From IMG/VR virus record IMGVR_UViG_2061766007_000800: a DNA stretch of 64,000 nt. One strand, written 5' to 3'. Origin of the DNA: an uncultured virus (IMG/VR IMGVR_UViG_2061766007_000800) (Duplodnaviria > Heunggongvirae > Uroviricota > Caudoviricetes). Position numbers and translations under genes: made by a program. Position 1 is the first letter of the stretch; the number at the start of each line of letters is the position of its first letter. Positions 5,677-16,840 of the stretch are shown in pieces. The notes under the pieces are model-generated. The model searched no databases, was not told the origin of the DNA, and worked only from the letters and a program-made list of their open reading frames with translations.

Positions 5677-5750
5677 GGGAACATAGCTCAGCTGGTGGTA
5701 GCATGCGACTGTTAATCGCAGGGTCGAGGGTTCGAGTCCCTCTGTTCCCG
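5677..5750 (+). tRNA. tRNA-Asn(GTT)
   Basis: Cloverleaf; TGCGA-CTGTTAA-TCGCA; GGTTCGAGTCC. Confidence 0.9.
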
Positions 5751-5972
5751 CTCTGAAATATAGGCTTGAGGGAACTGCAGATTACCTCTCCCTAAGTAAG
5801 ACGGTTTATATCTTAGCCTGTAACCAAAATGAAGATACCGAAGTTGTGAGGTGAATCAATCCTGTTTAGGTGCCTTCGAGAAGGAAAATGAAAATGCATC
5901 CGAAACTGACAACCGCGTAGTGCTGTTAGGTGACTACACACCTTTAAGAGATGGTAACTCTATGTAGTATTT

Positions 5973-6043
5973 GCCCTCATAATACAACGGTAGTATGGCT
6001 GCCTTGTAAGCAGTTCATGGCGGTTCGAATCCGTCTGAGGGCT
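5973..6043 (+). tRNA. tRNA-Thr(TGT)
   Basis: GCCCTCA/TGAGGGC; loop CTTGTAA. Confidence 0.9.
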
Positions 6044-6240
6044 TTAAAGATAACAATATTGACTATGTGTATTCTAGATACTACACATTGGAGAGACTCG
6101 CCTGAGAAAAAAGGTGCTTTGAAGGATGATAAGCATAATTAAATGTCACCCGATTGTCGACTAAGAATCTGCGCTATACAAAGGGGAGCGCAAAAAGAGT
6201 TGAAGTTATCTTTTATTCTATTAATGTAGTATTAATATAA

Positions 6241-6314
6241 CGCGGAGTCGTCTGGAGAGGTACCAGCCCACCCTCATAAGGTGTGTAACGGGGGTTCGAA
6301 TCCCCTCTCCGCTA
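6241..6314 (+). tRNA. tRNA-Met(CAT), initiator-like C1 mismatch
   Basis: CGCGGAG/CTCCGCT; loop CTCATAA; lacks the triple G-C anticodon stem of classic fMet. Confidence 0.8.
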
Positions 6315-6424
6315 TTCCCCTCAGAGGATAGAAACAAGATTTGAGTATAGTCCAAAGTAACTCACTTTGTGCGCACAGAGGAAGTTGGAGTGACGACCAA
6401 CACTTGTAGGCTATCGAGGGTTTT

Positions 6425-6498
6425 CGCCCTTTCTTCTAACAGGACTAGGATAGCGCCCTTTCACGGCGCTGATAGGAGTTCGAGCCTCCTAAGGGTGA
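6425..6498 (+). tRNA. tRNA-Glu(TTC)
   Basis: GCGCC-CTTTCAC-GGCGC; cloverleaf. Confidence 0.9.
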
Positions 6499-6571
6499 TT
6501 CCACATTAAAAGTGGAATAACAACAAGAAATGCTCTCTCCGCACCTACACGGATTATATGTAGGTAATATC

Positions 6572-6645
6572 TGCCCCGAGGTCAAATTGGTAGAGGCGCC
6601 ACACTGTCACTGTGGAGATAGCGGGTTCAAGTCCCGTCGGGGTAG
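6572..6645 (+). tRNA. tRNA-Asp(GTC)
   Basis: CCACA-CTGTCAC-TGTGG; cloverleaf. Confidence 0.9.
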
Positions 6646-6743
6646 CTACTGTAAATAATCGAAAGGTCGTTCTCGTGGGGCGACGTCGGGGGTAAAAGCC
6701 TGTGGTAGTGTAGGTGTCAGCACATCGATTGTTACAGGTTTAT

Positions 6744-6818
6744 GGGGGTATAGTTCTAATTGGCGAGAACAGGTCTTTTGCAAGGACACGGTTGAGGGTT
6801 CAAGTCCCTCTACTTCCA
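6744..6818 (+). tRNA. tRNA-Ala(TGC)
   Basis: GGGGGTA/TACTTCC with G3:U70; loop TTTGCAA. Confidence 0.9.
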
Positions 6819-6825
6819 TTTATTT

Positions 6826-6910
6826 GGGCGGGTAGACCGTTAAGGAGGCGGGCGGGACTGTAAATCCCGTGGCATTATGCACCTAGTGGGTTCGATTCCC
6901 TCTCCGCCCA
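6826..6910 (+). tRNA. tRNA-Tyr(GTA)
   Basis: CGGGA-CTGTAAA-TCCCG; long variable arm. Confidence 0.9.
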
Positions 6911-6914
6911 TTAT

Positions 6915-7005
6915 GCCTGTTTAAGCCTAATTGGTAAGGCAGCGCCCTGCTAAGGCGTGAGTAACCGCTTTAAGTGGTGTACTGGTTCAAGTCCAGTAGC
7001 AGGCG
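6915..7005 (+). tRNA. tRNA-Ser(GCT)
   Basis: GCGCC-CTGCTAA-GGCGT; long variable arm. Confidence 0.9.
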
Positions 7006-7252
7006 TGTACTCTNNNNNNNNNNNNNNNNNNNNNNNNNNNNNNNNNNNNNNNNNNNNNNNNNNNNNNNNNNNNNNNNNNNNNNNNNNNNNNNNNNNNNNT
7101 ATTACACCTATTAAAACAAGAAAATGGGTAAAGAAAAATGGCTGTTCCTATATTGGAACAAGTGAAAATAGTAAATGGGATTTTTATTGGTTTGGTAACT
7201 TTTCAACAGGTTATCAAGTTAAAGTTAGAAATTGGTAGAAAGGAGAACCAAT

Positions 7253-7741
7253 ATGGGTAGAGATATTTATATGCATATAGTTGAAAATGGTTGCGTTTTA
7301 AAGCGTGATATTTTTGAAGGCAGATGCTCTGATTGGTTTGACAATCTATCTAATAATGGGTGGGACCATAGCTATGACCATCTGCCTGTTGAGTATGGAA
7401 TTTCCCCAGAGAGTTCAGAAGAACTTAAAAAAGAATATAATACAGAAGAAGGATATTATGATTTTCGTTATATTAAAGTATCTGACTTCTTAAATTGGTT
7501 TGAAAAATATCGTCCTGACATTGAAGCGGGTTGGGTAACAACTTACGAAAAGTGGCTTATCGAAAAGAAGGGGTATGTCCCTGAAGATGTAAAACATTAT
7601 CTTGACAAAGAAGATGATATAAGAGATATGCACTTTATAGAGTTTGAAAACCCTTATGATTGCTCGAAATGGCTTTATAATTATCTTAAAGATAATGAAA
7701 TATCATTACAAGCAGACATAACCTATTGTTTTAATTGGTAG
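7253..7741 (+). CDS. hypothetical phage protein (MGRDIYMH.. family)
   Basis: AGGAG RBS, ATG at 7253. Confidence 0.7.
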   Translation: MGRDIYMHIVENGCVLKRDIFEGRCSDWFDNLSNNGWDHSYDHLPVEYGISPESSEELKKEYNTEEGYYDFRYIKVSDFLNWFEKYRPDIEAGWVTTYEKWLIEKKGYVPEDVKHYLDKEDDIRDMHFIEFENPYDCSKWLYNYLKDNEISLQADITYCFNW

Positions 7742-7828
7742 TTAAAAGGCGATATGAAAATATCGCCTTTATTTTTTTAAAAAAATTTGTTATAATTATT
7801 ATAGAAAATAAGAAAAGAGGTAATAAAT

Positions 7829-8104
7829 ATGACATTAAAAGAGTGGTTAGAAGTAATTGATGTAGTTGGTTTAAATGTTAGATTATGGTCGCAGTATTTC
7901 AAAGAGTATTCAGAAGAAGACGATGATGAACCCTTATGGGAAGGCTGGTCAATGAACATTCCTTGGGTTTATATTGATAAGAAGATTGGTATTGTTAATG
8001 AAAATACAGGTGTTATTGAAAAAGAAGATGCTATCTATTTTATAACAGAGAAGAATGAATATGGTGTTGATGTTATTTGGGCAAATATTAATATAGTAGA
8101 ATAA
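7829..8104 (+). CDS. hypothetical protein
   Basis: Promoter, RBS and ORF. Confidence 0.7.
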   Translation: MTLKEWLEVIDVVGLNVRLWSQYFKEYSEEDDDEPLWEGWSMNIPWVYIDKKIGIVNENTGVIEKEDAIYFITEKNEYGVDVIWANINIVE

Positions 8105-8106
8105 AT

Positions 8107-8191
8107 GGCGGGGTACCTTAGTGGGGAGGAGGCGCAGTCTTGAAAACTGTCGGGCTTAACCGCTCTGTGAGTTCGAATCTCACCCCCGTCG
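8107..8191 (+). tRNA. tRNA-Ser(TGA)
   Basis: GCAGT-CTTGAAA-ACTGT; long variable arm. Confidence 0.9.
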
Positions 8192-8194
8192 CTT

Positions 8195-8267
8195 GACGAT
8201 GTAGCCAAAATGGTAAAGGCAGCGGACTGCAACTCCGCGATTGTGAGTTCGAGTCTCTCCGTCGTCT
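8195..8267 (+). tRNA. tRNA-Cys(GCA)
   Basis: GCGGA-CTGCAAC-TCCGC. Confidence 0.9.
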
Positions 8268-8353
8268 TAAGGCATAGAACAAATGAGCCTCCTATGTACA
8301 AAGGTAATTAAAAAAATGTGTAGCAAGGGTGGATGACTTAAGCTGCCTGACAT

Positions 8354-8427
8354 ACTGGTGTATTTCAGTTGGTTAGAAGACTCGTCTGATAAGCGAGTTG
8401 CCGCAGGTTCGAATCCTGCCGCCAGTA
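8354..8427 (+). tRNA. tRNA-Ile(GAT)
   Basis: CTCGT-CTGATAA-GCGAG. Confidence 0.9.
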
Positions 8428-8497
8428 TAACAAGGTTTAACTTGTTATTTTTCATAGGCGTATTCCCCTTTCCTGTGAGGGTTATCACAGGAATTAT

Positions 8498-8574
8498 GGC
8501 TTGGTAGCTCAGTTTGGTCAGAGCGGTGGACTGAAAATCCATGTCTGTCGAAAGTTCGATTCTTTCCCGAGCCA
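8498..8574 (+). tRNA. tRNA-Phe(GAA)
   Basis: GTGGA-CTGAAAA-TCCAT. Confidence 0.9.
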
Positions 8575-8643
8575 TTCAGAAACACGGACAAGGCTTAGGC
8601 GCATGAAACAAAGCGGTGAGATGCGAGTGGTGATTTCTGATTT

Positions 8644-8714
8644 GTCCGTATAATATAATGGCAGTATGTTTGGCTTCCACCCAGACGGTGTGGGTTCAAA
8701 TCCCACTACGGACT
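8644..8714 (+). tRNA. tRNA-Gly(TCC)
   Basis: TTTGG-CTTCCAC-CCAGA. Confidence 0.9.
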
Positions 8715-8822
8715 CTATTGCAAGATAGATGCAACATAGATTCTACTTGATTAGGTGAACAATGATAAACCTATATATTCGAGGTCAGCCAACCGCCTTT
8801 GCAACAAAGAAGTTGGTAATTT

Positions 8823-8904
8823 GCACTCATGGTGAAATTGGCAAACACATCGCATTTAAGCTGCGACGCCTAACGGCTTGAGGGTTCAAGTCCCTCTGAG
8901 TGTA
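8823..8904 (+). tRNA. tRNA-Leu(TAA)
   Basis: TCGCA-TTTAAGC-TGCGA; long variable arm. Confidence 0.9.
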
Positions 8905-9180
8905 CTATGAGGAATTGCAAACCTCGTTTGACGGAGTAATTAATCGTTATGAAACTCTACTTTCATACAAACAAACAAAAGGAAGATAGAGTAGATAGAA
9001 TTAGTAGTGAGACCAATCATCGGGGATAGAATAGTTCAAATTGGACAAAGAGAACACACTACTTTAATGGACTTGCTTAGTAAGAGGAAATGAACGGCGG
9101 GAAAAGTTCTATCTGGTGGAGAGGAATAAAAACATATTTTTGCACAGGGTATGTTTTTGTGCAGCCTCTCTATCACTTAT

Positions 9181-9260
9181 GGGCTTGTGGTGAAATCGGC
9201 ATACACGCGGGTTTAAGATACCCGTCCGCGAGGGTGAGGGTTCAAGTCCCTCCAAGCTCA
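9181..9260 (+). tRNA. tRNA-Leu(AAG)
   Basis: CGGGT-TTAAGAT-ACCCG; Leu-type D arm and variable arm. Confidence 0.85.
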
Positions 9261-9265
9261 CTTGT

Positions 9266-9381
9266 TGCATAGTGGCGGAATGGCAGTAGACGCAGACAAT
9301 CCCCATCAGGTGGATGGATAAGGCTAGCATGTCGTAGGAGCAAGACAACTATATGTAAGGTTCGAATCCTTACCTATGCAA
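9266..9381 (+). ncRNA. Leu-like tRNA scaffold with expanded anticodon arm
   Basis: TGCATAG/CTATGCA acceptor, Leu-type D arm, GTAAG-GTTCGAATC-CTTAC T arm; about 30-nt insert in place of the anticodon loop. Confidence 0.7.
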
Positions 9382-9509
9382 TAATTTGAATTTTTAAAAA
9401 TTTTTTGATATAATATTATTATAAGATATGGAAAGGAAGTCTAAAAATGAGACGAAAGCATTACAGACGAAAACGTCAAACACAATTTAATAATGTAAAA
9501 TTTGAACGA

Positions 9510-9581
9510 GCGTCTGTGGTAGACAAGTAATACACTCGACTTTTAATCGAGAGCATGTGGGGGCAGTACCCATCAGGCGCA
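9510..9581 (+). tRNA. tRNA-Lys(TTT), non-canonical T loop
   Basis: CTCGA-CTTTTAA-TCGAG; T loop GGCAGTA. Confidence 0.8.
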
Positions 9582-9591
9582 TCAAATATGC

Positions 9592-9664
9592 GCTTGTGTA
9601 ACTCAAATGGAAGAGTGGCGGTCTCTTAAATCGTAAGGTGTGGGTTCAAATCCCACTACAAGCA
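9592..9664 (+). tRNA. tRNA-Lys(CTT)
   Basis: GCGGT-CTCTTAA-ATCGT. Confidence 0.9.
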
Positions 9665-9668
9665 CTCT

Positions 9669-9741
9669 ATCCCCATAGGCTAATGGATAGTACCTCTCGG
9701 CTACGAACCGAAAAGTGAGAGTTCGAATCTCTCTGGGGATA
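9669..9741 (+). tRNA. tRNA-Arg(ACG)
   Basis: TCGG-CTACGAA-CCGA; ATCCCCA/TGGGGAT. Confidence 0.9.
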
Positions 9742-9745
9742 TTTT

Positions 9746-9825
9746 AGTTAAGACACTTACAGCAATTTAACAACAAAAACAATTTTCTGATAAAAAATGT
9801 GGTTTAGTTAAGGTGTCTTGTTACT
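9746..9825 (+). ncRNA. small structured RNA, ACAGCAAT motif copy 1 (Y-RNA-like candidate)
   Basis: AAGACAC(9750-56)/GTGTCTT(9813-19) closing stem, TACAGCAAT, inner hairpin ATTTT-CTGATAA-AAAAT. Confidence 0.6.
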
Positions 9826-9838
9826 ACAAATTAATAAG

Positions 9839-9902
9839 GTTAAGACTCATACAGCAATCTTTATATTTCTTATTTGGCAAGAAGAAGACAAAGAGTCTTG
9901 TA
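9839..9902 (+). ncRNA. small structured RNA, ACAGCAAT motif copy 2
   Basis: AAGACTC(9842-48)/GAGTCTT(9893-99) with a compensatory change versus copy 1; inner hairpin TTCTT-ATTTGGC-AAGAA. Confidence 0.6.
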
Positions 9903-9986
9903 TATTTTCCTTTTATTATATACCTTTTAATTTATAGTAACTAATTGTAGTTTAATTAAAAGTATATTTTAGGAGGAATTTTTATT

Positions 9987-11456
9987 ATGAATTTTTCAGA
10001 TGCTATGAATTTTGAATTAACAAGAGGAAAGACTTGGAATGGTGCGGAGTGTCTCACTTCTACATCTAATGCTTGTCTTGACTTTTTTGGTAGAATAGGT
10101 GCTATGAGACAGGCTTCTGTAAATGAAAAGCTTGATTTATTCGACGCTGCATATCGTGAAGACCCTGACTCAGCTATGAAGTTGTTATTCTATACAAGAG
10201 ATATTCGTGGTGGTTATGGTGAGCGTGATGCTTTCAATGAGATATTCGCGCACCTCGCCGCAACACATAAGGATTCTGTAATCAAGAACATACCTAATGT
10301 TCTTGAATATGGTAGAGCAAAGGACTTATACTCTTTAATAGGCACACCCGCAGAGTCTGCTATGTGGTCTTTTATTAGAGAACAATTTGAGCTTGATAAG
10401 GCTAATCTTGTACAGGGTAAGCCTGTATCTTTATTAGCAAAGTGGCTTGCAACACCTAACGCATCTTCACCTAAGACTGCGGAATTGGGTGTATTAACTG
10501 CTAAGAAGCTCGGTTATAATTTTAAGTCTATGGCTCAGTACAGAAAGATATTGGTAGCTTTGAGAAAGGCTATTGATATTCCTGAAGCAAAGATGTCAAC
10601 AGACAGATGGGACGAAATCGTTTACGAGAATGTTCCCTCTAAGTGTAACATTCAGAATAGAGAAGCTTTTAAGCGTCATGACGGTGTTCGTTATGAGAAT
10701 TTCATTTCACAGGTTCAGTCTGGTGAAGTGAAGATGAATATGGCAACTGCTAATCCTTGCGATATAATGCAAAAGGTAGTTAATGGTGATAATGGTGTAG
10801 AGATTAACACTATGTGGAAGTCTTTACCTAAGATACCTACTAAGGCTCTTGCTGTTGTAGATACTTCTGGTTCTATGACTTGGGGTACTATAAATGGTGT
10901 AAAGCCTATTACAGTAGCAGTTGCTCTTGGTATCTACTTTGCTCAAAATAATGTTGGTCAGTTTAAGAATAAGTTTTTCACTTTTTCAAATAGACCTTCT
11001 CTTATTGAGATTAAGGGTAATACCCTTGGACAGATGTATGAACAGATTCGTAGAGCGGACTGGGGTAACTCTACTAACCTTGAAGCTGTCTTTGATAAGA
11101 TACTTGAAATGGGTATTAACTACCATATCGCTCCAGAAGATATGCCTGAGTCTATCTGTGTTATTTCAGATATGCAGATAAATGACTATGGTTATCATAA
11201 TGGTGGTTTAACATTTACTGATGTGATGAAGAGAAGATATGAGCAGGCAGGCTATAAGTTACCTCATGTAATTTATTGGAATGTTAATGCTATGAATCCT
11301 ACTTTCCATGCAGCAAAGTCTGATAATGGTGTTTCATTAGTATCAGGCTACTCACCTAATATTATGAAGCAAGTTATGGATAACATAGGCAAGACTCCTC
11401 TTGACCTTATGAATGACATATTAACTTCAGATAGATATAAGAATATAACAGCATAA
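9987..11456 (+). CDS. Ro60/TROVE-like helical domain plus vWA protein (DUF2828-like)
   Basis: LDFF, LFYTRDIRGGYGER, AKWL, YRK, VPS..AF.RHD; MIDAS VDTSGSM, STNL, ISDMQ, YWNV, LVSGYS. Confidence 0.8.
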   Translation: MNFSDAMNFELTRGKTWNGAECLTSTSNACLDFFGRIGAMRQASVNEKLDLFDAAYREDPDSAMKLLFYTRDIRGGYGERDAFNEIFAHLAATHKDSVIKNIPNVLEYGRAKDLYSLIGTPAESAMWSFIREQFELDKANLVQGKPVSLLAKWLATPNASSPKTAELGVLTAKKLGYNFKSMAQYRKILVALRKAIDIPEAKMSTDRWDEIVYENVPSKCNIQNREAFKRHDGVRYENFISQVQSGEVKMNMATANPCDIMQKVVNGDNGVEINTMWKSLPKIPTKALAVVDTSGSMTWGTINGVKPITVAVALGIYFAQNNVGQFKNKFFTFSNRPSLIEIKGNTLGQMYEQIRRADWGNSTNLEAVFDKILEMGINYHIAPEDMPESICVISDMQINDYGYHNGGLTFTDVMKRRYEQAGYKLPHVIYWNVNAMNPTFHAAKSDNGVSLVSGYSPNIMKQVMDNIGKTPLDLMNDILTSDRYKNITA

Positions 11457-11480
11457 TAGGGTGCATTAGCACCCTTATAT

Positions 11481-11553
11481 GCCTCCGTAGTCTAATGGAT
11501 AGGCAACGCTCTTCTAAAGCGTATAAATGCAGGTTCGAGTCCTGTCGGAGGTA
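11481..11553 (+). tRNA. tRNA-Arg(TCT)
   Basis: ACGCT-CTTCTAA-AGCGT. Confidence 0.9.
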
Positions 11554-11555
11554 CT

Positions 11556-11639
11556 GTGGCTATGGCAGAATTGGCTATGCACCAGATTGTGGCTCTGGGA
11601 GAGAAATCTCATATATGGGTTCGAGCCCCATTGGTCACA
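11556..11639 (+). tRNA. tRNA-His(GTG) with long variable arm
   Basis: CCAGA-TTGTGGC-TCTGG; extra GAGA-GAAA-TCTC arm. Confidence 0.85.
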
Positions 11640-11642
11640 CTT

Positions 11643-11773
11643 GGCGGAGTAATGTAATTGGTAACATGCTTTTTTTCTTTTACGTGTCTTGTAAAAGACA
11701 TAAACAGCAATTACTTTTTAGAAAATTCACACTTGTCCCGTGAGTAATGTAGGTTCGAATCCTACCTCCGTCT
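11643..11773 (+). ncRNA. tRNA scaffold carrying a permuted ACAGCAAT motif (copy 3)
   Basis: GGCGGAG/CTCCGTC, D arm, T arm GTAGG-TTCGAAT-CCTAC; insert GTGTCTT-GTAA-AAGACAT-AAACAGCAAT. Confidence 0.7.
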
Positions 11774-11778
11774 TATTT

Positions 11779-11853
11779 GCTGCTCGTCCTCGACGGTATT
11801 TTGGGGAATCGGCTTATATCCGATGACACAAGGTTCGACTCCTTGGGGCAGTA
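11779..11853 (+). tRNA. tRNA-Ile(TAT)
   Basis: ATCGG-CTTATAT-CCGAT; GCTGCTC/GGGCAGT; atypical D arm. Confidence 0.75.
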
Positions 11854-11945
11854 TTACTTTTTGATNNNNNNNNNNNNNNNNNNNNNNNNNNNNNNNATAT
11901 ATGTAAGATAAAAAAAGAAAAGAAAATGTATAGAAAGAGGTTAAT

Positions 11946-12428
11946 ATGACAAAGATATATTTAGCGGGTTCTTGCGCCCCCGAACAGAGAAATTTAATGG
12001 TTGCAATAGCAAAGTATTTAAGAAGTTTTAAGAATATTGGAGTATATTGTCCTTTTGAATTAGAAGTTCCTAATGCTTGGGATATTAGTCAAGAGGAATG
12101 GTCAGAGAAAGTATTTATGGCGGACAAGGACGCTATTGACAACTGTGATGTTTTCCTTATGATTTCTCAAGGTCGTATCAGTTCAGCTGGCACGAATTGG
12201 GAACAGGGATATGCATATGGTATAGGTAAATATATTGGTGTTATTCAAATTACCGATACACCGACAAGTTTAATGACTTATAGTTCTGCTGATTGTTTTT
12301 GTAATGTTAAAACAACTGATAGGTCTAATCTTCTGAATGAAATATCAGTTGCTATTGAAAAAGTTATGCTTTGTTATGACAAGCCTTGGGTTCAAGGTAA
12401 AGATAAATGTTTAACAGTCTTAACTTAG
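11946..12428 (+). CDS. nucleoside 2-deoxyribosyltransferase-like protein
   Basis: KIYLAG, D..AID.CD, SAGT.WE.GYA. Confidence 0.8.
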   Translation: MTKIYLAGSCAPEQRNLMVAIAKYLRSFKNIGVYCPFELEVPNAWDISQEEWSEKVFMADKDAIDNCDVFLMISQGRISSAGTNWEQGYAYGIGKYIGVIQITDTPTSLMTYSSADCFCNVKTTDRSNLLNEISVAIEKVMLCYDKPWVQGKDKCLTVLT

Positions 12429-12509
12429 GAGTATAGCGAAGCGGTCAAACGCGCTGGTCTCCAAAACCAGTCCTTAAAAGGTTCGTGGGTTCGAATCCTA
12501 CTGCTCCTG
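12427..12509 (+). tRNA. tRNA-Trp(CCA) with long variable arm
   Basis: CTGGT-CTCCAAA-ACCAG; extra CCT-TAAA-AGG arm. Confidence 0.85.
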
Positions 12510-12622
12510 TAGGCGCACATTGTGCGTGAGTCGCTTTTGCGGCGGTGGTCAATATTCGATTTTAGCACTTTTCTGTGAGCAGAGACCACCATTCAAATAA
12601 ACAGGTCAAGAAAAGTGCATAA

Positions 12623-12696
12623 CGGAGTATAGGACAGTTTGGTAGTCCGCATCGCTTGGGACGATGAGGTCGGGGGTTCGAATCCCTCTACTCCGA
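12623..12696 (+). tRNA. tRNA-Pro(TGG)
   Basis: CATCG-CTTGGGA-CGATG; CGGAGTA/TACTCCG. Confidence 0.9.
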
Positions 12697-12720
12697 TGAG
12701 TCTGTACAGAAAATTCAAGT

Positions 12721-12795
12721 ATGATAATAAGTATGCTAGGGTGTACACCGCCATCGGGCGCGGAGGGTGTAAGGTTCGATTCCTTACTTATCATA
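12721..12795 (+). ncRNA. degenerate tRNA-like element
   Basis: ATGATAA/TTATCAT acceptor and a good T arm; irregular anticodon arm with 8-nt loop. Confidence 0.5.
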
Positions 12796-12803
12796 GTTAT
12801 TTA

Positions 12804-13162
12804 GGGGGTGTATGTTGGTTTCGACAGGGCACAACCAAAAGGAAAAGCAAGTAGTGGATAATGGACACCACTTTAATCCGACATTAAAAAATAAACGCTA
12901 ACAATAGTTACGCTTTAGCTGCCTGATGGTAGTAAATCTATAAGGATATATCAGTCGTAATCCTTAAGATTTTAAAATGACTGATAGATTTGGTAAAAGC
13001 ATATATCTTTCAGAGAGCCAAATCAAATATGAAATTTCTGGCGGAGATTGACCACGATAGTTTGTTTATTTGCGAATCGTGGAATACAGAGACAAATAAA
13101 CTAAACTTGTAGAAAGCCTCAAGGAAGGGTTTTGGACGGGAGTTCGAGGCTCCCCACCTCCA
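12804..13162 (+). ncRNA. ssrA: tmRNA
   Basis: GGGGGTG/CACCTCC-A with G3:U70, GGTTTCGAC 5' motif, T arm; tag frame 12897-12926 = ANNSYALAA*. Confidence 0.93.
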
Positions 13163-13178
13163 CTTAGAAAGGAAAAAT

Positions 13179-13340
13179 ATGAGATTAATTTTAGAAATTT
13201 CAAAAGAAGAACTTGAAGAATATAAAAAGGGTGCAGACCCCGAAATAACCTACGAAGAAGCGGTTGAAGGTCTTATAGAAATTATGTGTGAAGATAAACC
13301 TATTGATTATATTGATTGGAAAGATATAAGAATAATTTGA
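13179..13340 (+). CDS. small acidic hypothetical protein (53 aa)
   Basis: AAGGA RBS, ORF. Confidence 0.55.
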   Translation: MRLILEISKEELEEYKKGADPEITYEEAVEGLIEIMCEDKPIDYIDWKDIRII

Positions 13341-13404
13341 AAATTCTNNNNNNNNNNNNNNNNNNNNNNNNNNNNNNNNNNNNNNNNNNNNNNNNNNNNN
13401 NNNA

Positions 13405-14199
13405 AGAATTGTAAAAGAATTAAGTAGAATTTTCGATATTTTTAAAGTAAGTGAAGGACAGATTAGACCTCATTTTATTTTAACAGGTGATAGTGGTAGC
13501 GGTAAGTCTTATATTATTGAACAGCTTGCCAACCAAAAAGAACTCGGCTTTGTGTCTATCAATGCCGCTCAGTTGACAAAGGAAGGTACTTCAGGTAATT
13601 CTTTAAGTAAAGCCTTATCACCTATTGCAGAATTAAAAGGGGTTATGACGGTTGTATTTGTAGATGAATTTGATAAGTTATTTATTTCAGATAATTCAAA
13701 TTCTTCTCTTGCAAATGAGGTAACTCTTGGTGTTCAGAATGAATTTTTAAAAGTTCTTGAATCACCTACTACCGCAGTATATGGAAATTATGGTCACTAT
13801 GTAAATATTGATATTAGTAAGTGCTTATTCGTATTTGCAGGTGCTTTTAACAATGAAGAGAATATGTCCCTCGACAAGTTAAGAACTTTTGGTGTAAAAA
13901 CTGAATTTTTAGGTCGTGTAGGATTAGTATATAGTACAGATAAACTTCTTCTTTCAGATTTATATGAAATTCTTGAAAATTCAGAATTGCTCAAACATTA
14001 TCTTAAACTTTTTGATAATGTTGACAGAGATGAAGTTCTTGATACAATTAAAAAGTATTTAAAAGCAAATTATAAGAATAATACTATTGGAGCAAGAGTA
14101 ATCAATACTTTGATTAATCAGTATTTCATCAAAGGTGGAGAGCTTGGGTTCGAAGATGTTAAGGAGATTACTTTCCAAGAAAAGTTATCTTTAAAATAA
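13405..14199 (+). CDS. ClpX/HslU-like AAA+ ATPase (start in N gap)
   Basis: Walker A GDSGSGKS, Walker B VFVDEFDKL, GVQNEFLKVLE, LFVFAGAF, FG..TEFLGRV. Confidence 0.85.
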   Translation, partial: RIVKELSRIFDIFKVSEGQIRPHFILTGDSGSGKSYIIEQLANQKELGFVSINAAQLTKEGTSGNSLSKALSPIAELKGVMTVVFVDEFDKLFISDNSNSSLANEVTLGVQNEFLKVLESPTTAVYGNYGHYVNIDISKCLFVFAGAFNNEENMSLDKLRTFGVKTEFLGRVGLVYSTDKLLLSDLYEILENSELLKHYLKLFDNVDRDEVLDTIKKYLKANYKNNTIGARVINTLINQYFIKGGELGFEDVKEITFQEKLSLK

Positions 14200-14212
14200 A
14201 AGGTTTAGTTAT

Positions 14213-14605
14213 ATGAAATATAATTTTGGAATTTTAAAAAACTCAATAATAGGTTTCAAGATAAATATTGATAACCATACTTATTATATTGGCGGAAAGT
14301 GCTTGAAAGTAACAAGCAAAGAAAATAGTTATATCTTTGAGTTTGAAGATAGAAAATTTGAAGTTAGAGAAGATGTATTTTCTCATATGAAAATAGAATA
14401 TAAAGATAATATCTTATATTTTATTCAGACTTCTGATGAAAAACTTATGTCAGGCTTGTTAGGGTTTACAATGTTTGATACTTTTGGTTTCCCCTATGAA
14501 CTTACACAAGAACTTTTAGACGAACAAAACCTTTCTTTAGATATGGAAGGTGTTGAAAGTTTAAAACTTTTCTCGAAAGAGAAGAACAAAAATACCTTTA
14601 AAAAA
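14213..14605 (+). CDS. hypothetical protein with an AlaRS-like F.(M/L)(F/Y)DT(F/Y)GFP.(E/D)LT.E motif (3' end in gap)
   Basis: MSGLLGFTMFDTFGFPYELTQELLDEQNLSLDMEG. Confidence 0.55.
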
Positions 14606-15046
14606 NNNNNNNNNNNNNNNNNNNNNNNNNNNNNNNNNNNNNNNNNNNNNNNNNNNNNNNNNNNNNNNNNNNNNNNNNNNNNNNNNNNNNNNNNNNNNNN
14701 NNNNNNNNNNNNNNNAATAGAGGAAATAAGGATATTTTCTCAACGCAAAAATGGATTACCTCCACAAAGCGAAAAAATGGAAAGTAAGGTTTGTATTGGC
14801 AACTATGCTGTACCTATCCATTACGGGAAACAGAGGTTAAGTTGCGATGGCGCCAGATAGCAAAAGAACTGAGAACATTAGGCAAAGATAGGCGGTTGGC
14901 TGACCNNNNNNNNNNNNNNNNNNNNNNNNNNNNNNNNAAAATAAAAAATTTTTGATATAATTATTAAGTAAGATAAAAAAAGTTCTTTAAAAAGTTAATA
15001 TTTAAAAGTAAATGTTTAAGTATTAACTGTTCAAAGAACTTTGTTC

Positions 15047-15930
15047 TAAGAACTCTGGCTTGACAGATAAAACCTTGAAAGAGGTCGAAAGGGGTGTATT
15101 GGCAAAGCCCCGCCAGAAATGGTAAATCAAGCAAAACGAGACGGGACTAATTAGTTTTGAAAAGAAACTGATGCTTATGTAACCCCCATGAGCTACCTCA
15201 TAAGGAGTGATGTGAAATAAAAGTTCTTCAAGGTCGGAGCTGATGAGAAGAACTGTTGCCGCAAGCGACTTGCATCAAACGCAAAAACGGACTGTGAGGA
15301 ATAGTAAGCCGTAGGTAGGTTAGTTCGAGTATAGCTAACAAGGGCAACTACCAGTTTATCTGCTATGGTGGATAAATCGTGTGAGTACGAAAGCAAAGGA
15401 AAACACATATTGGCGAGTAGCATTCCTGCACTCAAAAGGTATGGGAACTACAAATGAAAGTTCGTCAATAGCCGCTAACTTAGTATGGGTTCGAATCCCA
15501 TCGAGGGCTCTCTATATACTCTTAATAAATATGCCCTCGTAGCTCAAGAGGAAGAGCAACTTATGTGATGGATATAAGTGTTAAAAGTGAAAATCTTTCA
15601 TTGGAACTGATGAAAAGTATCCTAATCCCTTAGTTAGTAAGACAATAGGGGGTATAATATGGACAACCATATTGTATTTGATTGAAACGAAACTATAAGA
15701 ATGTAGCAATTCTGAATAGTCCGCAAGATTAGTAGTGGAGTGATAATCGAGTAAGCAGTTCTTTAAGGGTTGAAGCAGACCCGAACCACATTTGGATTAG
15801 TGGTTCTTAATTGCGGGTATGAGCATTACTATTCAAAAGATAGTGGAAAAGTGACTAAGCTGATTCGTTGGTATAAGGTCATTAAGATGTAGTATCGTTA
15901 ACTGTATTCTCAAGTTAATCTGAATTCTTA
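15047..15930 (+). ncRNA. giant structured ncRNA, GOLLD-like (about 880 nt)
   Basis: No credible ORF; downstream of a promoter; 5'/3' pairing TAAGAACTC-TGGCTTGA with TCAAGTTA..GAATTCTTA; recalled GOLLD-like motifs GAGTAG..CTCAAAAGG, CCGCAAG, TTCAAAAG, 3' TTCTCAAG; tRNA-array context. Confidence 0.65.
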
Positions 15931-16009
15931 CTAAATAAAACAGGCATGTGAGGGAAAGACTCCCTCCGCATTTGAAATAACTCTAAAAAATGTGTTCGCC
16001 TGTTTTGAA

Positions 16010-16080
16010 GTGGTTATCGTATAGTGGTAGTACATCACCTTGCCAAGGTGGGAGGATGGGTTCAAATCCCATTAATCGCT
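16010..16080 (+). tRNA. tRNA-Gly(GCC)
   Basis: TCACC-TTGCCAA-GGTGG. Confidence 0.88.
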
Positions 16081-16234
16081 CTAATTGATAATTTAAAAAA
16101 TTTTTGATATAATATTTATAGAAAATAAGAAATCGCTCAATGATATTTTAAATGTCTTGACTCGCAAAACTGCTATGTTTCCAATATTGAGATAGTTAGG
16201 GAATAAAAGCCGAGGGAATACCTAACAAACCCTT

Positions 16235-16840
16235 TCTTGTACCTTGAAAACTTAAAAAGATAGAACCTATTGATAAACGCCAACCAACATTGGCGGTAGG
16301 AAATTCTGAATAGGCTACCGATTCTACCGAAGGATACTTTGGTCATGGCGGTTGCTCTTAAAGGTAACGATAAGAACAGGAGGTTGAGACCCAAAGCCTA
16401 AGGAATTGTACTTTATTTATCGTAGTATAGCACAGGAAGTGTGTCGGGGGAACAATAGAAAGTTAATCGAAAGATTAGCCTCTCCAAGTTAGGTGGAAAC
16501 AGGTGGTGCTGTCGCAGACCTTGGAAATACCAATAATTCCCTTTGCGGTGAAGCCAAGAAATTGGTGTATAAGACATGCAAGAAACCTCTGAGTAGCAGA
16601 AAGCGCAAATAACAAGATGATGGAAGATGAAAATGGTCAGTAGTCTTTGAATTTCTGAAAGTAACTGTGAAAGGTGCTGGGTAGACATTCCCGTCAAGGC
16701 AATACGGACTTTGGTCAGGGTAAGAATGCATAAGGGTAGCTGCTTATGCACAGACTTATTCTCCTTGTAGTGTAATAATATTAAAGATAAATAAAGTAGG
16801 TTGAAGAACCCAAATCTGTTTAAGTTTTTAAAGTACAAGA
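16235..16840 (+). ncRNA. large structured ncRNA, ROOL-like (about 610 nt)
   Basis: About 22-bp terminal stem 16235-16256/16819-16840; TACTTTATTTATC/GATAAATAAAGTA; recalled ROOL-like 3' motif GGGTAGC..CAGACTTATTCTCC; own promoter 16085-16113. Confidence 0.65.

Follow-up and report, generated by a model that had tools for sequence, protein, structure and literature searches.

Why would a phage carry a transfer RNA (tRNA)-like element inside a giant RNA with its 3′ half placed before its 5′ half, and what becomes of an acceptor end that lies in the middle of such a gene? The question is raised by a 64,000-nucleotide (nt) stretch of DNA from an uncultured tailed virus (Caudoviricetes; IMG/VR record IMGVR_UViG_2061766007_000800), the whole of which is called the window below, and in which a GOLLD RNA carries an element of this kind in its variable linker. 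To our knowledge, GOLLD is among the largest non-coding RNAs of bacteria and phages; the structure of its cage has been solved, and we know of no function for it. Some of the ingredients are familiar: permuted tRNA mimics (YrlA) and two-piece transfer-messenger RNA (tmRNA) have been described, and a tRNA or pseudo-tRNA is known to occur in the GOLLD linker J13/15 (Kretsch et al., bioRxiv 10.1101/2024.12.08.627333; PMC12990946; PMC6582537). Searching the full-text literature, which did not cover Weinberg 2009 and Morgado 2020 or their supplements, where one could be shown, we found no description of a permuted, CCA-keeping tRNA domain in GOLLD, and GOLLD goes unmentioned in a 2026 preprint about tRNA mimics of bacteria.

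A complete permuted tRNA-like domain

Positions 15476-15595 of the window are a complete, circularly permuted tRNA-like domain with four arms, located in the variable linker of GOLLD (Table 1). The T arm comes first, then the acceptor 3′ strand, the spacer and the acceptor 5′ strand, and last the D arm and an anticodon-like arm. The permutation break falls in the variable region, and it is through the variable-loop region that the domain is joined to GOLLD. An earlier reading of the locus, made from the sequence only and called the sequence-only reading below, had described a permuted tRNA elbow here. The T arm, the two acceptor strands and the D arm are all present in the sequence as that reading gave them, and its 24-nt AT-rich linker corresponds to the discriminator T15509 plus 23 AT-rich bases. 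The elbow is there, but its extent was drawn too small: the four-arm domain as a whole, including A15558 and the hairpin that follows it, had been overlooked.

All the letters of a tRNA core are in place in the window, namely U8-A14, the pair 15:48, G18/G19 with the T loop, and T54-A58. The minimum free energy structure that RNAfold predicts for 15476-15585 is the permuted cloverleaf itself (-30.6 kcal/mol, z -2.9; 3 of 200 shuffles did equally well). The program also predicts the anticodon-like hairpin, for which an alternative pairing of up to 8 base pairs (bp) with a 5-nt loop can be drawn; the loop of this arm in the window is no decoding loop. RNAfold further pairs 15476-15479 with 15580-15583, and the lead-out and lead-in may therefore form a short helix resembling a variable arm. 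A strict pattern (T arm, 7-bp acceptor hairpin and D arm with GG) matched a single time across both strands of the window, and not once in 100 mononucleotide shuffles of it. Neither ARAGORN nor the Rfam tRNA model made a call at 15485-15579.

The homology of the carrier RNA to GOLLD is not in doubt. The Rfam model RF02032 matches 15408-15916 untruncated, from position 1 to 416 of 416 (129.8 bits, E 1.1e-35), and this full-length alignment includes the nested helices and the pseudoknot that mark membership of the 3′ domain. The score is under the curated cut-off of 150 bits, a shortfall that fits the long insertion carried by the linker. In its 5′ domain the RNA is similar to another permuted locus introduced below (L019), and it lies in a phage and tRNA-array setting, with 23 tRNA genes, a tmRNA and a ROOL RNA nearby. 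No match to the GOLLD stretch was found by blastn among 50,697 phage records.

Table 1. Features of the permuted domain, its carrier RNA and their surroundings (positions refer to the window unless other loci are named)
Feature	Position	Strand	Remarks
GOLLD RNA: 5′ domain, linker, 3′ domain	15044-15955	+	Rfam RF02032 3′-domain match and contigs of RNA runs
Conserved lead-in TAACTTAGT	15476-15484	+	T15484 = tRNA position 48
T arm ATGGG / TTCGAAT / CCCAT	15485-15501	+	C56 = 15492; 5 bp kept in 27/27
Acceptor 3′ strand CGAGGGC (15502-15508) and discriminator T15509	15502-15509	+	Predicted mature 3′ end
AT-rich spacer	15510-15532	+	Predicted to be removed; begins CTC, ends AT at -2/-1
Acceptor 5′ strand GCCCTCG	15533-15539	+	Perfect 7-bp complement of 15502-15508; predicted RNase P site T15532/G15533
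U8-A9 (TA) and D arm GCTC / AAGAGGAA / GAGC	15540-15557	+	A14, A15, G18, G19 and A21 in place
A26 (A15558) and anticodon-arm-like hairpin (15559-15579)	15558-15579	+	5-bp stem ACTTA/TAAGT, 11-nt loop
Conserved lead-out GTTAAAAGTGAAAATC into GOLLD 3′ domain	15580-15595	+	Conserved as GTYAWRAGTAAAAAYCT in the alignment
Canonical-order inserts of other GOLLD loci (L005, L006, L031, L034, L035, L036, L038, L071)	220-300 nt before GOLLD 3′ motif		ARAGORN: Trp, Asn, Lys, Arg, SeC, Lys, Lys, Pyl, respectively
ROOL RNA	16242-16830	+	Rfam, 277 bits; after GOLLD with one tRNA-Gly between
One-piece tmRNA, phage-encoded	12763-13163	+	Tag ANNSYALAA; closes the tRNA array
Ro60-like open reading frame, 489 amino acids	9987-11456	+	DUF2828 and DUF7788; PHROG 850 'RNA-binding protein'; inside the tRNA array

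Recurrence inside GOLLD and covariation

Relatives were collected in four ways. A scan of viral contigs for the GOLLD 3′ motif gave 119 stretches (80 with flanks), among them L019, which has the permuted arrangement of the window but another acceptor stem. Scanning for the D arm yielded 44 stretches and placed the module inside GOLLD in three more contigs (L125, L127 and L164), L123 being the contig of L019 again; it also brought up L166, a case outside GOLLD that is described below. A covariance model built from four sequences and run on 165 sources added one further, divergent member (L082, 70.8 bits); its remaining matches scored at most 43 bits and were mostly junctions of tandem tRNA genes. 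Finally, a pattern made of the lead-in and T arm, run over three collections, returned 102 stretches (23 viral, 69 metagenome and 10 genome), of which 32 hold a complete module, two are cut by contig ends (L206 and L221) and 68 are unrelated. The letters AACTTAG of the lead-in are common to all members, but they were part of the search pattern.

Together with the window, 33 loci carry the module, representing 27 distinct sequences. A GOLLD match extends over the module in every one of the 20 loci, of the 32 found, that were tested with Rfam; 19 of these matches are full (97.8-162.1 bits) and one is truncated, and 8 of the 20 reach at least 150 bits. The insert thus recurs in GOLLD homologues, a point that the sequence-only reading had proposed to check by aligning them. 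The module covariance model (R1) was also run on 151 genomes of the order to which the one module-bearing bacterial bin belongs; its single match was the bin itself, on a contig of 2.6 kilobases (kb), and no cultured host was found among these 151 genomes.

In a MAFFT alignment of the 27 distinct sequences, all 621 of 621 pair cells hold standard pairs, and compensatory changes are seen in 16 of the 23 pairs, the tertiary pairs 15:48 and 19:56 among them. By stem, two-sided changes affect all seven acceptor pairs, all five pairs of the anticodon-like stem and two of the five T-stem pairs, the D stem being invariant in all 27. None of 500 shuffles reached the observed pairing or covariation score, and when partners were slid by one to three columns as a control, just 32-57% of the cells paired. 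The Levitt pair 15:48, which joins alignment column 10 (T15484) to D-loop position 15, covaries perfectly (U:A in 16 sequences, C:G in 11), and so does the elbow pair 19:56, which links the D loop to the T loop (C:G in 21, G:C in 6). These are pairs of a real tRNA fold kept across the permutation break. Because the parser demanded three of the stems, pairing in them is partly built in; the strongest evidence comes from the T stem, which the parser left free, and from the two tertiary pairs, which neither search nor parser required. Among the loci in GOLLD context, none was discarded because its stems failed to pair, and only the two loci truncated by contig ends were dropped.

The anticodon-like arm varies in its own way: its loop has 8-13 nt in all 27 sequences and mostly carries a GGAA or TGAAAA motif. 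As an observation apart, the loop (15564-15574) is in several members complementary to a conserved segment of the 5′ domain (..TTCAACGCAAAAGG) at about 15268-15275, TTCAACG, some 200 nt upstream. The pairs are TTCCAAT/ATTGGAA (with what appears to be a compensated insertion) in some members versus TTCAACG/TGTTGAA in others, and the complementarity is weak or absent in the rest. With support this uneven from member to member, it could be a long-range pseudoknot.

The acceptor end and its possible maturation

What, then, happens at the acceptor end? In all 26 variants other than the window, the acceptor 3′ strand is followed by one base and CCA (N73-CCA). The discriminator is C in 16, G in 10 and T in one (the window) of the 27. 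The window module has no CCA, T15509 being followed by CTC. However, CCA is encoded in none of the 23 tRNA genes of the window (5677-16081), whose 3′ trailers mostly start with T, whereas in the other module loci it is present in 134 of 146 tRNA calls (counted over overlapping loci; of the 12 calls without it, several reflect offset boundaries in ARAGORN). The window module thus obeys the 3′-end rule of the genuine tRNA genes of its own genome. On the other side of the spacer, AT at -2/-1 before the acceptor 5′ strand is invariant in the 27 modules; the leaders of neighbouring tRNA genes have AT in 91 of 115 cases and T at -1 in 103 of 115. The part of the spacer that separates CCA from the 5′ strand measures 14-50 nt and varies in sequence among the 27 variants. 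The short spacers have TAAACTC in common. When the acceptor strands of the 27 modules were compared with the 405 canonical ones in the examined loci, no two were identical, which shows that the modules are not fresh copies of neighbouring tRNA genes.

The CCA signature acquires additional meaning from tRNA-like inserts of canonical order, which occupy the same place of GOLLD in 8 of the 80 sampled GOLLD loci (Table 1), the place in the linker being set by the distance from the GOLLD 3′ motif. CCA follows none of these eight inserts, versus 26 of 27 flanking tRNA genes, and they look like tethered, uncut mimics. It follows that CCA is lost where the insert is tied by its acceptor end (0/8) and kept where it is tied by the variable region (26/26). 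Not every GOLLD has such an insert: in MT835469.1 (GOLLD at 172.6 bits) nothing tRNA-like was seen by eye in the linker, and the locus gave no strong R1 match.

Public sequencing data bear on the same end. The GOLLD stretch is present in 20 public runs, nine of them recorded as RNA and derived from five bovine-gut studies. One RNA run (X10) has a contig covering 15049-15510 that runs on into AGATCGGAAGAGCGTCG, which we take to be Illumina adapter letters, and a second contig covering 15545-15880. If these are indeed adapter letters, the first contig marks the end of a molecule one base past the discriminator. In an RNA run from another study (X3), the contigs cover 15044-15506 and 15561-15955. 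The contigs of X3 and X10 extend from 15044/15049 to 15880/15955 and include no flanks, whereas a DNA run (X4) yields one uninterrupted contig, 14990-16082. That two studies stop near one place where the DNA continues is a weak hint of an RNA end, to which the adapter letters lend strength in the case of X10. Neither X3 nor X10 has a contig over 15511-15544, and this lack of cover is not counted as evidence.

On balance, we think it fairly probable that the spacer is removed in the way DNA between two tRNA genes is, by RNase P and 3′ maturation, giving a two-piece GOLLD clamped by the permuted tRNA-like domain. The domain folds into the L-shape of a tRNA with the T and D loops as its elbow and hangs from GOLLD by its variable-loop region, an attachment that makes the acceptor stem point away from the scaffold. 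In the gene, the acceptor ends are joined by nothing but a dispensable AT-rich spacer, which after transcription would be treated like the DNA between two tRNA genes. RNase P would cut between T15532 and G15533, a site predicted on the precedent of Mycobacterium smegmatis YrlA (PMC4201824). The host tRNA 3′-end pathway would mature the 3′ side to the discriminator, by RNase Z-type cleavage followed by CCA addition in the CCA-less window phage, and by trimming back to CCA in the relatives that encode it. Two products are predicted, one of about 467 nt, from 15044 to 15509/15510, and one of about 423 nt, 15533-15955; the 7-bp acceptor helix and the tRNA core would keep them joined, and each protomer would show one tRNA-type, nuclease-resistant acceptor end. 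The authors of the YrlA study have likewise proposed that the tRNA-like end protects against exonucleases (PMC4201824). Cryo-electron microscopy of other GOLLD members has revealed cages of 10 to 14 subunits with the linker inside, where tRNAs are sometimes found (bioRxiv 10.1101/2024.12.08.627333; PMC12990946); in such a cage, the free acceptor arms would point into the lumen.

The sequence-only reading had already supposed that the spacer could be cut out to leave a CCA-type end. This gains support from four independent lines, namely CCA in 26 of 26 relatives, the rule of the window's own tRNA genes, the AT leader and the contig ends at 15510 and 15506; several points weigh against such processing. 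The RNA evidence consists of assembled contigs, not raw reads. The X10 contig ends in ...GGGCTC followed by the adapter, and a full CCA was not seen. Nor was a 5′ end at 15533, the downstream contigs starting at 15545 and 15561; these starts adjoin strain-variable sites (15548 and 15565-15573), and the assemblies may therefore break there. An RNA run from a third study (X17) contains a contig, 15068-15722, that bridges the spacer at a depth of 487, which means that uncut RNA, or DNA in the library, exists; in this variant, the anticodon-like loop is changed and its stem is kept. The long spacers of relatives (32-50 nt after CCA) hold a hairpin of 5-7 bp with a loop ending in (G/C)CACC (L171, L174, L182, L189, L193, L205, L207, L213, L214, L217, L259 and others), unexpected for a throw-away spacer. 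Furthermore, the scans fixed AACTTAG and the T-arm letters, and the parser accepted only full pairing of its three stems.

The main rival, to which we give a real but clearly smaller chance, is that the fold is the one described but its spacer stays, so that the module is a tRNA mimic tethered within the GOLLD cage, uncut and closed by a hairpin like Salmonella Typhimurium YrlA, offering a mere shape to a tRNA-binding factor. The high-depth bridging contig and the conserved CACC-loop hairpin are both in its favor, and the canonical-order GOLLD inserts, too, appear uncut. It also has a precedent, since S. Typhimurium YrlA and Deinococcus radiodurans Yrn1 are not cleaved according to the YrlA study (PMC4201824). 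However, an uncut mimic leaves unexplained why N73-CCA is universal in the relatives yet absent from the canonical-order inserts, why the window module follows the rule of a CCA-less genome, why AT before +1 never changes, and why the X10 contig ends at 15510 with adapter letters.

Another alternative, which we consider improbable, is that the module represents the Y-RNA part of a phage Ro60 system, in which a Ro60-like protein binds GOLLD at or next to the module and either tethers a nuclease or shields the RNA. A candidate protein is at hand, encoded 4 kb upstream within the tRNA array (Table 1). Its AlphaFold model (predicted local distance difference test score 90) has a Ro60 fold (TROVE and vWA), with the Ro autoantigen 1yvr (E 1.7e-9, TM-score 0.64), the Ro60 of Thermus phage phiLo and D. 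radiodurans Rsr as top Foldseek matches in the PDB. The model suggests that DUF2828 proteins may be Ro60-like, and relatives of this one number more than 2,500 in the protein collection. The module itself is weakly matched by the YrlA model (see below). Yet the Ro60-like gene was found in just one of five other module-bearing phage records, and not in the three that are 95-100% complete, and in none of four GOLLD records without the module; module and gene do not co-occur consistently. A gene 75% identical to it resides in a phage (L001/G001) with no tRNA and no GOLLD match. The Ro-binding motif GNCGAAN0-1G is not found beside the module (15400-15640); its sole match in GOLLD, at 15084-15091, is no more than chance would give and has not been conserved in L019, and the window as a whole has 7 matches versus 8.5 expected.

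The possibility that the module has no function and is what decay has left of two tRNA genes in tandem (a 3′ half from the first, a 5′ half from the second), or a product of chance complementarity, is very slight. Permuted genes usually arise when a tandem duplication loses its outer halves, and this may well be the origin of the module, whose spacer indeed resembles an inter-tRNA spacer (CCA ... TAT). But decay or chance is excluded by the 27 variants, in which compensatory covariation is complete across four stems and both tertiary pairs, and it would also have to account for the fixed position inside GOLLD, for acceptor strands that are not shared with any neighbouring tRNA gene and for the failure of 100 shuffles to match the strict pattern. 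The least credible option of all, a true permuted tRNA gene of the red-algal type whose ends are rejoined to release a decoding tRNA, shares with Cyanidioschyzon merolae the gene order of 3′ half, spacer and 5′ half (PMC3978253) but is made very unlikely by outer ends that are GOLLD domains of 470 and 380 nt without a short joinable junction and by 8-13-nt loops with GGAA-type motifs and no conserved anticodon in 27 of 27 variants.

Known relatives, genomic setting and significance

To which known RNAs is the domain related? The sequence-only reading had likened it to YrlA and two-piece tmRNA. As regards gene order and general likeness, the comparison holds for both, but the features that make a tmRNA are missing. 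M. smegmatis YrlA (RF02553; Chen et al. 2014) has the same order of T arm, acceptor hairpin and D arm, the same 7-bp acceptor stem and the same elbow letters. In that RNA, RNase P cleaves the acceptor loop in vitro, two halves exist in vivo, and the 5′ half ends in CCA, its CA being added (PMC4201824); the corresponding processing of the window RNA is what we infer. Over 15461-15575 the YrlA model scores 32.7 bits (E 5.6e-5; cut-off 69) with only the tRNA-like part aligned, and it gives 30.0 bits on L019. The carrier here, by contrast, is a cage-forming GOLLD of about 910 nt rather than a Y RNA of about 150 nt, and the module has a fourth, anticodon-like arm and is joined to its carrier in the variable region. 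There is also no Ro-binding stem or motif, and a Ro60-like gene, although near in the window, is not found in most relatives. A separate permuted tRNA mimic was encountered at the start of a viral contig (L166, 86-175, + strand), with an acceptor loop of only 8 nt, without CCA and in surroundings that hold no GOLLD. The YrlA model gives it 39.2 bits and R1 gives it 43 bits, and it looks like an uncut RNA of the YrlA type.

With the tRNAs known from GOLLD linkers, the module shares its place in GOLLD and its elbow. Those inserts are in normal 5′-to-3′ order, are joined by the acceptor end and lack CCA (in the sample, all eight of them), whereas the module is permuted and joined by the variable region, leaving an acceptor end that is free and, in this clade, CCA-bearing.

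Two-piece tmRNA, which is found in alpha-proteobacteria, some cyanobacteria and beta-proteobacteria, offers another parallel. There, the gene is permuted, an intervening segment is lost, and two RNAs are held together by the acceptor/T domain with CCA on the upstream piece (PMC3978253). The module likewise has a permuted gene, and its precursor would be processed in a comparable manner, with a CCA end on the upstream piece. On the other hand, none of the 27 modules has G3:U70, the pair 3:70 being C:G, G:C, A:U or U:A in all of them; ARAGORN finds no tag reading frame; tmRNA pseudoknots are absent; and the Rfam tmRNA models give just 12-20 bits. Moreover, the window phage has an ordinary one-piece tmRNA of its own, unlike a permuted two-piece one. 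The permuted tRNA genes of C. merolae and Thermofilum pendens resemble the module in placing the 3′ half first with a spacer at the acceptor ends, but their tRNAs are rejoined via a circular intermediate and decode (PMC3978253), whereas the module has GOLLD at its outer ends and a non-canonical anticodon loop.

The window itself is a phage genome region of about 32% G+C, in which all 44 open reading frames of at least 150 amino acids lie on the + strand; its proteins are phage-like and resemble those of large gut phages and Enterococcus phages. The tRNA array comprises 23 tRNA genes and the tmRNA (ARAGORN). Two further stretches of the + strand match the Rfam tRNA model without an ARAGORN call, 9510-9581 (45.5 bits) and 11643-11773 (43.1 bits over 131 nt), the latter perhaps being a tRNA interrupted by a long insert. 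In 6 of 20 related loci (L189, L193, L205, L213, L217 and L231), ROOL lies within 1.5 kb of the module-bearing GOLLD, as it does in the window; these two cage-forming RNAs travel together. A promoter-like string, TTTTTGATATAAT, stands before GOLLD at 14949-14961 and again before ROOL at 16101-16113. The GOLLD contigs of the RNA runs start only at about 15044, after a palindrome (14971-15050) that is AT-rich, measures about 80 nt and is perhaps a leader removed by processing. In the tRNA array downstream of another module-bearing GOLLD (L164, 2817-2927, + strand), there is a drum RNA (Rfam RF02958, 72.4 bits).

It has been suggested elsewhere that tRNAs in the GOLLD linker are cargo or are stored there. 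The clade described here has a second, distinct way to mount a tRNA shape in the GOLLD cage. The shape is attached through its variable region, which leaves the acceptor end free, and CCA is maintained at this end by selection. Since CCA is retained in inserts tied by the variable region and lost from those tied by the acceptor end, it is the 3′ end itself that matters in the module clade. As for what would bind this end, a hypervariable acceptor stem combined with a varying discriminator argues against a single synthetase identity; it favours an end that is recognised generically, by helix and CCA. A more speculative picture, which we offer as a long shot, is that of cages built from two-piece RNAs, their lumen lined with 10-14 tethered, matured acceptor arms with free and perhaps aminoacylated CCA. 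Such a cage might be a decoy or sink for host factors that act on the 3′ ends of tRNAs (toxins by which the acceptor end is modified or trimmed, enzymes of CCA addition or repair, an elongation factor) or might hold charged ends out of reach, and pressure from generic recognition might then explain the fast turnover of the acceptor helix.

If the spacer is removed as proposed, permuted and processed tRNA mimics, so far represented by YrlA and two-piece tmRNA, would extend to giant cage-forming RNAs. This reading makes definite predictions, namely that the RNA exists in two pieces, that RNase P cuts at 15532/15533 and that one piece ends in CCA. GOLLD RNAs that bear the module also provide a natural system for asking what the interior of the cage does.

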